From Candidatus Heimdallarchaeum aukensis (GTDB taxonomy: Archaea; Asgardarchaeota; Heimdallarchaeia; Heimdallarchaeales; Heimdallarchaeaceae), in assembly GCA_021513695.1 (NCBI GenBank), contig CP084166.1, positions 1,376,001-1,440,000 of the forward strand: a stretch of 64,000 nucleotides of DNA, written 5' to 3'. The position numbers and the translations under genes were made by a program. Below, piece after piece: positions 32,070-35,359 of this stretch. Position 1 is the stretch's first letter. The number at the start of each line of letters is the position of its first letter. The notes under the pieces are model-generated. The model saw only the letters and a program-made list of their open reading frames with translations, was not told where the DNA came from and searched no databases.

Positions 32070-32213
32070 ATGAATAAACAAGACACTAAAACTGAACATG
32101 AGGAAAAAGAAGAGAAAATTTTCAAATGTACAGGATGCCACACTCCACTCTCTATTTATGATGAAAGATGTCCAAGATGTGAAAGAAAGAATCCGCATTA
32201 TATTTATAGGTAA
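32070..32213 (+). CDS. Small zinc-ribbon protein (47 aa), not in the supplied ORF track
   Basis: ATG..TAA with the sequence MNKQDTKTEHEEKEEKIFKCTGCHTPLSIYDERCPRCERKNPHYIYR. It has a CxxC..CxxC ribbon. Confidence 0.3.
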   Translation: MNKQDTKTEHEEKEEKIFKCTGCHTPLSIYDERCPRCERKNPHYIYR

Positions 32214-32277
32214 CTAGAACTAGCAAAAAAATTATTAATAAATTAATTTTCATAAAAATAAAAAGGATTTGTATAAT

Positions 32278-32448
32278 ATGTCTATTCCAACACCACCATC
32301 TAAAGATAGTAACGAGGAGGGAAACCCGGATGCAAATTGTCCAGAATATAAACCTATAATGGGAAATTACTGTGAATTTTTCGTAACAAGGACTGGAGAA
32401 TGTATTAAAGGAGTAGGAAAGTGCGATGGCTTTGGTGTGTTAAAATAA
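32278..32448 (+). CDS. Small Cys-rich protein (56 aa), not in the supplied ORF track
   Basis: MSIPTPPSKDSNEEGNPDANCPEYKPIMGNYCEFFVTRTGECIKGVGKCDGFGVLK. It has four Cys with knottin/ribbon-like spacing. Confidence 0.3.
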   Translation: MSIPTPPSKDSNEEGNPDANCPEYKPIMGNYCEFFVTRTGECIKGVGKCDGFGVLK

Positions 32449-32461
32449 GAAAAAATTAAAA

Positions 32462-33295
32462 TTATTTTTTCAGATATTCTTCAAGTTCGTTATTTATTTC
32501 TTTAACATTAGCAACAATTCTATTTTGGCTTTCGCCTTTATTACCTTCAACATTTATTGTAGAAGAGGTTAAAAATAAAGGTTTATAAAAGTCACGTAAC
32601 ATTTTTTTACCTTCTCCAAGTAAGCAAGAACAAGTTCCTATATAGTTTCCATCAGAATCTCTTCTTATTCTAAAATAAGTTATATGGCTAGCTCTGCTAC
32701 GCCAAACAATTAGGTTTGCTGTTAAGCTTATGTTACTTCGAATAATATGACCTAGGAAAACATTGTCTTTTAAACCGAACTCATAGAGTTTAGGGCTTGG
32801 CTTTGCTTCAAAATTTGTCATTAAAAAGATTGTAGTATCATCAGATAATTTTGTATAACGTTTAATTGGTACATCTCTTGTTGATTCTTTTATTATAAAA
32901 GTAAACGATTTTTCACGACGTAGAGTGTATGCTGATTGATTTTCTATGATCGCAGAAGTTACATTGATTAATAATTTAGCGTTCTTTTTGTTCAATTCAA
33001 ATCTTTCTACAGATTGAACAGGAACTTTTGAACTAGAAATAAGAGAACAAGCTAGTGTTCCTATCATCTCGTGAGTGACAGGGCCTCTTATTTTACATCC
33101 TGATGGCAAAACAATTACGGGAATATCATTTGGATCAATATTATTTTTTGTAAAAGACTTTGTAGATTTATCAGATTGATAAACTATAAGCTTCACATCG
33201 TCGCTATTCACTGACTCTATGATAGAACTCATAAAACTTAACATTGGCTTGCAGTGATCACATGTTTCAGAATGAATATACAGCTCTAGTTCCAT
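32462..33295 (-). CDS. Hypothetical protein with an N-terminal CxxC (thioredoxin/glutaredoxin-like) motif and further Cys pairs
   Basis: 277 aa. It has 'SETCDHCKPM' near the N-terminus and 'GTCSCLLGEG' near the C-terminus. Confidence 0.35.
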   Translation of the reverse strand: MELELYIHSETCDHCKPMLSFMSSIIESVNSDDVKLIVYQSDKSTKSFTKNNIDPNDIPVIVLPSGCKIRGPVTHEMIGTLACSLISSSKVPVQSVERFELNKKNAKLLINVTSAIIENQSAYTLRREKSFTFIIKESTRDVPIKRYTKLSDDTTIFLMTNFEAKPSPKLYEFGLKDNVFLGHIIRSNISLTANLIVWRSRASHITYFRIRRDSDGNYIGTCSCLLGEGKKMLRDFYKPLFLTSSTINVEGNKGESQNRIVANVKEINNELEEYLKK

Positions 33296-33398
33296 AGTTA
33301 TCTATTCCTTTTTTTTTAAACAATAAAAGGGTTAAAGTGAATTATTATAAAGATTACTATCAACTTAATTTTTGAGTTGACAGCTATTACACACTTTG

Positions 33399-34250
33399 TT
33401 ACTTTAACAATGCAAAAACAATCCATAATACAGAAATAATTATTGCTGAAAGAATATTAAATAGAGAATACAATTTTAAAGTATCATCAAAGTATAAACT
33501 TTCTATATATTTTCCTATAGAATTTAATCTATTATCTATAGTGTACAATAACGAGCTAATTTTTGTTGTTTCTCTTTCATTTTCTTCCGTTGATGCGAAT
33601 ATATCGATAAAAGCGTGTAACATTTTTTTATCTTGTTCTAATACTAAAGATGAACTAACTGACTCTAATTTTTTATGAAGTTCTTCAATCTGTTCTTTTG
33701 AAAGAACAGGTATTTTCCAAGAATAAGCTTCACTTGCTATTTTTCCAAGATGGTGAGCAATATCATCAATGTATATATCGAATGATACTGGTCGATAATT
33801 TGTTTGATCTATCATTCTAAAAAATTGTAGATCTAAATCCTTTTTATTCTCGTTTTGATAGTATTTTAACGGATCTACTACTAAAGCTATAGCTTTTGGG
33901 AACAAGTTTTGATATGTTCGTTGTGTGTTTTTATCTGTTCCTGATAAGAAACACCCATAACCTGGATGAGTATGCCACCAGCCAACTATGGTTTGTTCAC
34001 TATCTCTCTCTTGTAACTTCATAACAATATCAACTAAAGCTTCATCATCCATTACAACAAAAGTGCTTGTTTGCTGTTGTTTTCCTGTATCAATGTCTGT
34101 AATAATAAGCTGATCAGTATCTTGCTTAACATATCCTATTAGCAAACCAGCTGATTCTTTTGATGTATCCATTCTATCAACAGTTAGTATTTTTGCCAAA
34201 GCAGTTGCAGATAATAAGATTTCAATATCTGAAGGTTCAGTCATTATCAA
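33399..34250 (-). CDS. JAMM/MPN+ zinc metalloprotease (Rpn11/deubiquitinase-like) with a C-terminal transmembrane anchor
   Basis: 283 aa. The complete JAMM motif comprises the upstream Glu in 'ESAGLLIGY' and 'WWHTHPGYGCFLSGTD' (HxHx7Sx2D). The C-terminal hydrophobic helix is 'LFNILSAIIISVLWIVFALL'. Confidence 0.8.
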   Translation of the reverse strand: MIMTEPSDIEILLSATALAKILTVDRMDTSKESAGLLIGYVKQDTDQLIITDIDTGKQQQTSTFVVMDDEALVDIVMKLQERDSEQTIVGWWHTHPGYGCFLSGTDKNTQRTYQNLFPKAIALVVDPLKYYQNENKKDLDLQFFRMIDQTNYRPVSFDIYIDDIAHHLGKIASEAYSWKIPVLSKEQIEELHKKLESVSSSLVLEQDKKMLHAFIDIFASTEENERETTKISSLLYTIDNRLNSIGKYIESLYFDDTLKLYSLFNILSAIIISVLWIVFALLK

Positions 34251-34321
34251 GTATAAAGTTATAATAGGGGTATAAAATATTTCTCATTTCTTGATTTTAA
34301 AAAATTAATGTAAAGAATAGG

Positions 34322-35359
34322 TTATAATCTTGACAGAATTGGATATTCAGTTAATAGGTAATAGGTCATTTCCTTTAACTTTATTATATCTGGATGTTCT
34401 TTTGAAATGCCTTGGTGTTCAGTTTTTTCTATGTAATCCATCATAGCCCATAGAGCTATATAAAAATCAATAGGAAGGCCTTTAGGGTACATTTCCTCTA
34501 AAGTAGGTACATGAAGTTCTTTTAGGTGAACATTATAACCTTTCAAAAACTTTCTAATATCTTTAGCAGTCTCAACTAAATTATTTGTTTCTCTGTACTC
34601 CAGTATGGATTGTCTCCCAAAAAAAGTTCCCATATCCTCAAATCGGTCATATGATCCCTTCATCCAGAATGTTGGGTCAATTAGTGCGATAGTTATTACT
34701 TGATTATCAGGTGTTATTCTTAGCATTAAATTGCTTTGGTGAAAATCCCCAAAAGCATCGCAACCCCCCATTGAAGAACTAATCATTTGCAGAAATGGTT
34801 TAGATTTCTCTACCACCGTGCTTTCTTGTTCATCGCCGCCAAATATCTTAAAAACTAATCTTCGATGAAGCTCTTCATATATATCTACCATAACTTTTCT
34901 TGTTTGTCCTCCATGAATTACTGCAAGAACATAACCAGCCCAAAAACTCTTATTTCTTACTTCAACAGCATCTTCATAATTAATTCCTGTTATCCCTTCA
35001 TAAGCTATAAAGGGATTATCTCCTAGATTTACATAAATAAATCTTGGAATTCTGACTACAGATCTCGCAGCAAATTTTTTCTCAAGGGTCATTGTGTTTT
35101 TTATTTCTAATAATGCATCATTACTATTTTCTATAAATTTAATAGCAACCTTCTTCTTATGTTCAGTGATTTCTGAAGAGTAATATACATCTACAACGAA
35201 CACTTCTCCAAATCTTCCAGCTGTTTTAAAATATTTAATATTGTTAATGTTGATATCAATTATATCTTTTCCAGTATCTCTATTTGCTTCATCAATAAAG
35301 TAGTATCGGAATTGATTGATTAATTTTAGTAAAAGCTCAGAAGCAACATCAGTATTCAT
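34322..35359 (-). CDS. Atypical protein-kinase-like protein (RIO/Bud32/Kdo-kinase-like fold)
   Basis: 345 aa. The Gly-rich loop is 'TAGRFGEVFVV', followed by 'KKVAIKFI' (VAIK Lys). The catalytic-loop-like 'GDFHQSNLML' compares with HGDLxxxN. 'LIDPTF' sits in the DFG position. Confidence 0.5.
   Translation of the reverse strand: MNTDVASELLLKLINQFRYYFIDEANRDTGKDIIDININNIKYFKTAGRFGEVFVVDVYYSSEITEHKKKVAIKFIENSNDALLEIKNTMTLEKKFAARSVVRIPRFIYVNLGDNPFIAYEGITGINYEDAVEVRNKSFWAGYVLAVIHGGQTRKVMVDIYEELHRRLVFKIFGGDEQESTVVEKSKPFLQMISSSMGGCDAFGDFHQSNLMLRITPDNQVITIALIDPTFWMKGSYDRFEDMGTFFGRQSILEYRETNNLVETAKDIRKFLKGYNVHLKELHVPTLEEMYPKGLPIDFYIALWAMMDYIEKTEHQGISKEHPDIIKLKEMTYYLLTEYPILSRL

Follow-up and report, generated by a model that had tools for sequence, protein, structure and literature searches.

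Rpn11-like JAMM enzymes of Asgard archaea have been discussed as forerunners of the eukaryotic deubiquitinases. A solved archaeal member of this group, the Rpn11 homolog of Caldiarchaeum subterraneum (CsRpn11; PDB 6FJU/6FJV), is a soluble enzyme that has been demonstrated to process ubiquitin and is encoded beside a ubiquitin/E1/E2/RING operon, and the JAMM proteins of Asgard archaea were reported to be closest to Rpn11 (PMC6043591). In the 64,000-nucleotide stretch of the Candidatus Heimdallarchaeum aukensis chromosome analyzed here (contig CP084166.1, positions 1,376,001 to 1,440,000; hereafter the window), our analysis revealed a JAMM protein of the Rpn11 type that carries a C-terminal tail-anchor signature and whose gene directly follows that of a kinase-fold protein. 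The two genes form a conserved pair, and homologs of both in deeper-branching relatives lie together within type-IV-filament loci. We favor, with moderate confidence, the reading that the pair is a membrane-tethered isopeptidase/kinase module with an accessory or regulatory role in the Heimdallarchaeial type-IV-filament machine.

The five open reading frames (ORFs) to which an initial annotation of the window had drawn attention, between positions 32070 and 35359, are all present there, and each is annotated as a gene in the public record of H. aukensis; four of them (K9W45_05890, K9W45_05895, K9W45_05900, and K9W45_05910) are labelled “hypothetical protein” in GenBank, and the JAMM gene is entered as “Mov34/MPN/PAD-1 family protein” (UJG41998.1). 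The JAMM gene (33399..34250, minus strand) encodes 283 residues from a TTG codon, or 281 residues from the ATG at 34244 that GenBank takes as the start. Its product matches the Pfam family JAB (PF01398) with 52 bits against a cutoff of 22.5 (E 7.4e-14). The catalytic set is complete, reading E32 ... H93-T-H95-PGYGCFL-S103-GT-D106 and carried in the translated zinc-site motif HTHPGYGCFLSGTD (33933..33974, minus strand). Residues E32, H93, H95, S103, and D106 are invariant among 28 JAMM-family sequences, and the HxHx7SxxD motif occurs only once in the whole window. The closest solved protein by sequence is CsRpn11 (phmmer E 5.5e-23; ~30–34% identity over the JAMM domain, with the same catalytic motif), followed by Rpn11, CSN5, and AMSH. 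A Foldseek search with the AlphaFold model of the protein (mean predicted local distance difference test score, pLDDT, 78) returned the same ranking, with CsRpn11 again the best match (2.4e-16). In this model pLDDT falls below 50 at residues 59–66, a flexible loop at the position of Ins-1, as is also found in CsRpn11; beyond the JAB domain there is a helical region that closes with a long helix, residues 229–282. The equivalog model for small archaeal modifier protein (SAMP) desampylases of the HvJAMM1 type (NF041370) was not reached, at 20.2 bits against a cutoff of 130. Judged from its sequence, the protein is an Rpn11-like JAMM/MPN+ metalloprotease with an intact site and predicted (iso)peptidase activity.

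The C-terminus of the protein carries a single strongly hydrophobic segment, FNILSAIIISVLWIVFALLK (33402..33461, minus strand, by translation and hydropathy). The best 19-residue Kyte-Doolittle mean is 2.59 at residues 264–282 of 283, one residue from the end, while the second-best segment scores just 1.20. A hydrophobic helix lying 0–4 residues from the end was found in all 30 of the 30 family members (Kyte-Doolittle 2.06–2.97), and the same hydropathy test found no such C-terminal helix in a soluble CsRpn11-like relative (P0052). The protein thus shows the features of a tail-anchored protein, namely a lone hydrophobic helix in the last ~30 residues, with neither an N-terminal signal nor any other transmembrane segment. 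This signature would leave the catalytic domain in the cytoplasm. The proposal in the initial annotation that a complete JAMM site sits on a protein with a C-terminal membrane anchor was therefore borne out by the Pfam match, the full motif, and the hydropathy of the 30 members.

These features set the protein apart from its characterized relatives. Compared with CsRpn11, it has ~130 extra C-terminal residues ending in the predicted anchor, lacks ubiquitin-system neighbors, and has a kinase as its genomic partner. AMSH, AMSH-LP, and Sst2 are likewise JAMM isopeptidases at the membrane surface, and they match the window protein by sequence at 1e-10 to 1e-7. AMSH is recruited peripherally to ESCRT-III via its N-terminal MIT domain, whereas the window protein would be integrally tail-anchored and shows no ESCRT linkage. 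With Rpn11 and CSN5 it has the JAMM fold and C-terminal helices in common, the full-length Foldseek alignments covering ~280 columns (E ~1e-15). In contrast to them, it has no MPN− partner of the Rpn8/CSN6 kind and no PCI lid, and its C-terminal helix is a predicted anchor instead of part of a lid bundle. Inspection of related loci revealed neither MPN− nor PCI genes, and no PCI complexes are known from archaea (PMC6043591).

The upstream member of the pair (34322..35359, minus strand) encodes a protein of 345 residues that the initial annotation had taken for a RIO/Bud32-like kinase. This identity was rejected, as the fold is of the APH/choline-kinase type. By sequence the assignment is below threshold: the match to Pfam APH (PF01636) reached 14 bits against a cutoff of 23.2 (E 0.043), and a phmmer search of PDB sequences returned nothing up to E 10. 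An alignment-based structure model (pLDDT 89, predicted template modeling score 0.84) has a bilobal kinase fold with a helical substrate lobe, the DxxxxN of the catalytic loop, and a metal-binding Asp downstream of it. The protein is thus placed in the APH fold by its modeled structure and its motifs, yet not by the Pfam threshold. Small-molecule kinases predominate among its top structural matches (aminopropanol, maltose, methylthioribose, glucosamine, and choline kinases), and its identity to any solved member of the APH/choline-kinase group is only 10–18%. The peptide-acting enzymes LxmK and TvaE are also among the fold matches, so that the fold does not decide the class of substrate. The catalytic segment FGDFHQSN...IDP (34667..34753, minus strand, by translation) holds the catalytic-loop residues Asp205 and Asn210 and the metal-binding Asp228; these columns, the Gly-rich loop, K74 in AIKF, and E93 are invariant in 25 kinase sequences with identities down to 31%. 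Because the catalytic residues are invariant across these sequences, the protein is probably an active phosphotransferase. It also differs from the APH/choline-kinase/methylthioribose-kinase group (the PF01636 clan) in its genomic partner, a JAMM protease. The true Bud32 of the window is probably a 224-residue ORF at 40683–41357 with Pkinase and RIO1 matches.

The association of the two genes was examined in loci gathered with the kinase as bait (28 from genomes and 18 from metagenomes) and in loci obtained from individual homologs; all were screened by tblastn, the bait-collected ones only with a fixed panel of query proteins. Among 47 loci with at least 900 nt downstream of the kinase, 46 carry the JAMM gene somewhere in the locus. 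In 41 it lies immediately 3′ of the kinase on the same strand, with gaps of 52–263 nt and over an identity span of 30–93%, and in five loci (four distinct ones) it lies 2–3.2 kb away within a pilus locus. As some loci are duplicates from one organism, the independent cases number closer to 40. The members of both families come almost exclusively from Heimdallarchaeaceae. The genes that flank the pair vary among loci, the JAMM gene of other Heimdallarchaeaceae being followed by an F420-ligase, pterin-binding, or GHMP-kinase gene, and the kinase-JAMM pair therefore moves as a unit. The conserved-neighborhood comparison that the initial annotation proposed, made over ~50 loci, thus upheld the kinase-like gene as the partner of the JAMM gene and reduced its five-gene cluster to a two-gene unit. 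The CxxC gene and the two small Cys-rich genes of that cluster are syntenic with the pair solely in ~93%-identical loci, so that the conserved unit is the kinase-JAMM pair alone, with its 3′ boundary at the JAMM stop codon.

Homologs of both proteins at 28–47% identity, from deeper-branching relatives, occur together within type-IV-filament loci. In L004/L005, L008, L039, and L058, the kinase, the tail-anchored JAMM protein, and two P-loop proteins are encoded between the genes for a FlaI-like ATPase and two T2SSF (FlaJ/UpsF-like) platform proteins. These loci also hold a coiled-coil protein gene and, downstream of the module, genes for three pilin-like proteins with class III signal-peptide-like N-termini. 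In their FlaI-like ATPase, split FlaJ/UpsF-like platform, coiled-coil protein, and class III pilin-like proteins, they resemble the Aap-like loci that Heimdallarchaeota have within the archaeal type IV filament (TFF)/type IV pilus (T4P) group. Gene order and orientation inside the locus differ in each of the four distinct cases. The two P-loop proteins are paralogs with an ATP-cone-like N-terminus and were assigned to the 2-phosphoglycerate kinase (2PGK)/mevalonate-3-phosphate kinase family, scoring 190–242 bits with the 2PGK equivalog (cutoff 343). They also accompany the pair outside pilus loci: one 2PGK-like gene lies divergently upstream of the bare pair in five loci (L025, L033, L043, L045, and L052), and two lie downstream of it in two others (L036 and L037). 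In a further lineage (locus L055), a single ORF of 695 residues (P0133) joins an Rpn11-like JAB domain, at the N-terminus, through a Pro/Ser/Thr-rich linker to the ATPase. The HxHx7SxxD motif of P0133 is intact and its ATPase part is orthologous (58% identity); the same pilus locus has genes for an A24 prepilin peptidase and two T2SSF proteins, with small proteins encoded downstream. Two censuses (PMC4858521; bioRxiv 10.64898/2026.04.22.720090) describe the Heimdallarchaeial filament systems as simple, core-only loci, and neither mentions JAB/JAMM proteins, 2PGK proteins, or a kinase as a locus component. Our literature searches found nothing relevant on a JAMM protein or kinase in archaeal filament loci or on tail-anchored archaeal JAMM proteins, in a searchable literature that is incomplete, so that an earlier description is possible; nothing relevant on pili or ubiquitin was found in the Heimdallarchaeum genome paper.

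According to our preferred reading, the tail anchor, or the fusion in P0133, would position an isopeptidase of the Rpn11 type on the cytoplasmic side of the membrane, beside the FlaI-like ATPase and the FlaJ-like platform. The tethered JAMM protein may cleave a C-terminal or isopeptide-linked tag off a component of the machine or a client, and the kinase would supply a controlling or priming phosphorylation, to which one or two 2PGK-like P-loop proteins might contribute in many relatives. Both enzymes would have to be active, and the unlinked pair in the window would still serve a pilus machine. The phrase used in the initial annotation, a membrane-associated deconjugation or signaling module, remains a fair description of a JAMM site combined with a C-terminal anchor and a kinase partner. 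The idea that the JAMM protein replaces the prepilin peptidase, both enzymes cleaving at the cytoplasmic face of the membrane, was rejected as a main idea because the pilin-like proteins have ordinary class III signal peptides and L055 has its own A24 peptidase.

Several observations weigh against the assignment of the pair to a pilus machine. The 64-kb window contains no pilus gene, and none was found within 10 kb of the pair in the Heimdallarchaeaceae loci. Embedding in a pilus locus is seen in one subclade only, that with ATPases sharing at least 73% identity with the one of L004, and a single ancestral insertion followed by reshuffling may explain it; the module was not found in pilus loci with more distant ATPases (L056 and L059–L064). 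The pilus link of the H. aukensis copy is thus drawn from its relatives, because the window is without pilus genes and the embedding is limited to a subclade. In favor of the assignment, an ATPase (P0246) in the same 90%-identity cluster as P0115, which is 63% identical to the L004 ATPase, is recorded on the 3.08-Mb H. aukensis chromosome, outside the window. Metagenome contigs with the exact P0246 carry a full pilus locus, with the ATPase, two T2SSF genes, a coiled-coil protein gene, and pilin-like genes adjoining an Arf/Ras-like GTPase gene, and this locus contains none of the kinase, JAMM, and 2PGK genes. Against the assignment, the JAB domain of P0133 scores 78 bits to the window JAMM protein and 72 bits to the soluble CsRpn11-like protein; being similarly close to both, it is treated as a parallel association and not as an orthologue. 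One kinase gene lacks a JAMM gene, on a 1.9-kb metagenome contig (L054). Finally, we know of no pilus-related substrate of a JAMM protein, and the nearest characterized relatives act on ubiquitin.

The main rival explanation is compatible with the pilus reading and overlaps it in part. It holds that the JAMM protein is a membrane-anchored deubiquitinase of an Asgard ubiquitin system that takes ubiquitin off membrane proteins, or processes the ubiquitin precursor, much as AMSH or Doa4 act at eukaryotic endosomes, with the kinase as its regulator and the pilus linkage incidental or one client among others. The ubiquitin specificity of its closest relatives in both sequence and fold (CsRpn11, Rpn11, CSN5, and AMSH), including the demonstrated activity of CsRpn11, and the flexible loop at the Ins-1 position argue for such a role. 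The genomic setting argues against it, since enzymes of the CsRpn11 type are reported to adjoin a ubiquitin/E1/E2/E3 operon, whereas the invariant partner here is a kinase. Consistent with the initial annotation, none of the window ORFs scanned against Pfam matched ubiquitin, E1, or E2, and a scan for small ORFs ending in GG gave no credible candidate in the window, the only one being a spurious antisense ORF. No ubiquitin, E1, E2, or RING gene was found in the window or in the related loci with inspected gene tables; in the bait-collected loci such a gene would escape detection because a fixed query panel was used. We regard a deubiquitinase role as a tentative possibility.

A second alternative places the pair in a small-molecule or surface-decoration pathway, in which the kinases phosphorylate a metabolite, a lipid head group, or a glycan and the JAMM protein is an amidohydrolase acting on a carrier- or peptide-linked intermediate in the manner of CysO/Mec+, yielding phospho-modified pilins or envelope. 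It would account for the predominance of small-molecule kinases among the structural matches of the kinase and for the membership of the associated P-loop proteins in the 2PGK/mevalonate-3-phosphate kinase family. However, neither a carrier protein nor an E1-like adenylase or transferase is conserved beside the pair, the JAMM domain belongs to the Rpn11 type, not to the Mec+/QbsD type, and the peptide-acting LxmK and TvaE also appear among the fold matches. Such a pathway seems unlikely to us.

A more specific proposal is that the Rpn11-type isopeptidase is mechanically coupled, by its anchor or by fusion, to the hexameric PilB/FlaI-type ATPase and strips a ubiquitin-like or peptide tag from pilins or other engaged clients under the control of the kinase. 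The position of the JAB domain beside, or fused to, a hexameric ATPase in relatives loosely recalls that of Rpn11 over the proteasomal ATPase ring, but the ATPase linked to the JAMM relatives is a secretion ATPase of the PilB/FlaI type, whereas that of Rpn11 is an AAA+ unfoldase. We consider this coupling quite improbable.

A joint function of all five genes, for example as a redox-controlled deconjugation system, has in its favor that all five are real genes and are adjacent in both H. aukensis and H. endolithica. Their synteny, however, does not extend beyond ~93%-identical loci. H. endolithica (L009, 93–96% identity) is the sole case in which synteny with the pair extends to the CxxC gene, both small genes, and the genes for Cgi121 and AMP phosphorylase; a metagenome contig 93% identical to the window (L041) carries the CxxC gene too, and none of the three extra genes was found beside the pair in ~40 loci of more distant relatives having flanking sequence. 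The CxxC gene (32462..33295, minus strand) encodes a protein of 277 residues that the initial annotation credited with thioredoxin-like CxxC motifs. One CxxC, an N-terminal CDHC, is indeed present, but the second cysteine motif is CSC. Of eight relatives, only the closest three retain CDHC; the motif is not conserved within the protein’s own family. This family is tiny, with 10 relatives in 1.84 billion representatives, and its conserved portion is the C-terminal ~200 residues. Evidence for a thioredoxin is weak, consisting of a match to PDO_seleno_TRX at 15 bits (cutoff 185; E=0.011) and the UniRef label “Thioredoxin domain-containing”.

The two small genes lie downstream of Cgi121 on the strand opposite to the pair, and both had been described as zinc ribbons. 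This holds for the 47-residue protein (K9W45_05890; 32070..32213, plus strand), a CxxC-x12-CxxC zinc ribbon with a sub-threshold match to Pfam DZR; the 56-residue protein (K9W45_05895; 32278..32448, plus strand) has four Cys but no CxxC pairs. Compared with H. endolithica, neither ORF has indels, and 10 of 17 differences in the 47-residue ORF and 17 of 21 in the 56-residue ORF fall at third codon positions; when read in other frames, most differences become replacements and stops appear. Both are thus real genes under purifying selection. The short stretches just 5′ of them (32033–32069 and 32214–32277) are AT-rich and highly conserved in H. endolithica, while the remainder of the spacer between Cgi121 and the small genes is only ~49% identical, which suggests that the small genes have promoter elements of their own. 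Near the pair, the 47-residue gene was found only in L009, and a homolog of the 56-residue gene in the ACTSQE metagenome-assembled genome lies on a different contig from that genome’s kinase-JAMM pair. The three extra genes, for the CxxC protein and the two small Cys-rich proteins, are neighbors without relation to the pair. A joint five-gene function is effectively excluded, as is an anti-virus defense module resembling Cap3 of the cyclic oligonucleotide-based antiphage signaling system (CBASS), with a JAB isopeptidase as the regulator of a conjugation-controlled effector: despite domain-level matches of the JAMM protein to PADLOC JAB (best 9e-12), NCBIfam Cap3, and 6A-MBL cap2_3, the scores are far under the family cutoffs (24 against 200 bits for the Cap3 isopeptidase model NF050170, and 27 against 320), the kinase has no PADLOC match, no CD-NTase, Cap2, E1/E2, or effector gene lies nearby, and the pair is present in 28 of the 28 Heimdallarchaeota genome loci from the scan in a stable housekeeping neighborhood, unlike a defense island.

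If our preferred reading is correct, Rpn11-type enzymes were already deployed at membranes, outside a ubiquitin operon, and four candidate accessory proteins, absent from the lists of recent censuses, would be added to the “simple” type-IV-filament systems of Heimdallarchaeia. Were the ATPase-coupled isopeptidase also correct, it would be the prokaryotic counterpart of the arrangement in which Rpn11 sits over the ATPase ring of the proteasome and would link the ubiquitin-type toolkit of Asgard archaea to the assembly of cell-surface filaments. By itself, the finding settles no major open question.

Several further features were observed in the loci of relatives. In pilus loci of the Heimdallarchaeum type, a small Arf/Ras/Roc-like GTPase gene adjoins the two platform genes (L056 17059–17598, L062 13459–14001, and L064 9398–9940), and in L006 the gene of a distant tail-anchored JAMM protein (P0051) adjoins a Roadblock/LC7 gene; both arrangements recall the MglA/MglB-type control of bacterial type IV pili. 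A ribonucleotide reductase gene with several LAGLIDADG inteins and a product of >2,300 residues lies beside the Heimdallarchaeaceae pilus locus (L056 1064–8077 and L063 1–7229). The module-carrying metagenome-assembled genome of L004/L005 (GCA_003696825.1 and GCA_964645535.1) is labelled “Methanobacteriota/Euryarchaeota archaeon” in GenBank. This label is probably wrong, because the ATPase of this genome shares 67–70% identity with Kariarchaeaceae-labelled proteins and 71% with a Heimdallarchaeota-labelled one.

A four-gene block (35584–36699, plus strand; 36792–37868, plus; 37895–38482, minus; and 38560–39579, plus), spanning 35584–39579, is located upstream of the kinase, in divergent orientation, in most Heimdallarchaeaceae loci (>20). 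The product of the first has Glu/Lys/Pro-rich repeats and ends in a poly-Lys tail, and the other three have in common a paralogous C-terminal domain of ~120 residues (hhalign probability 97–98%) that belongs to no Pfam family. A Roadblock/LC7 identity was considered for this domain and rejected: the sole PDB profile match, to a CvnB protein, was non-significant (E 0.26), and comparison with the Roadblock protein beside the distant JAMM protein showed no similarity.

The window as a whole has a G+C content of ~30% and contains archaeal markers, namely an archaeal RNase P RNA, the KEOPS subunit Cgi121, and AMP phosphorylase. The KEOPS components are scattered over 12 kb and are neither fused nor adjacent, with Cgi121 at 31391–31927, the Bud32-like protein at 40683–41357, and Kae1 at 42667–43671. 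Between H. aukensis and H. endolithica, identity is only 72% for Cgi121 but 93–98% for its neighbors. Genes of the eukaryote-signature type include one for a Gtr1/RagA-family GTPase of 414 residues (44773–46017, minus strand) and at least two for Roadblock/LC7-domain proteins (1004–1387, plus; 9474–9854, minus). A protein of 689 residues (13424–15493, plus strand) combines two phospholipase-D-like domains with a lamin-tail domain (LTD). Lastly, the gene immediately next to that of the archaeal RNase P RNA (63008–63322, minus strand) encodes a protein of 581 residues (61185–62930, minus strand) whose ribonuclease domain is of the Zc3h12a/NYN type; a weak PRORP-like match was also noted for it.

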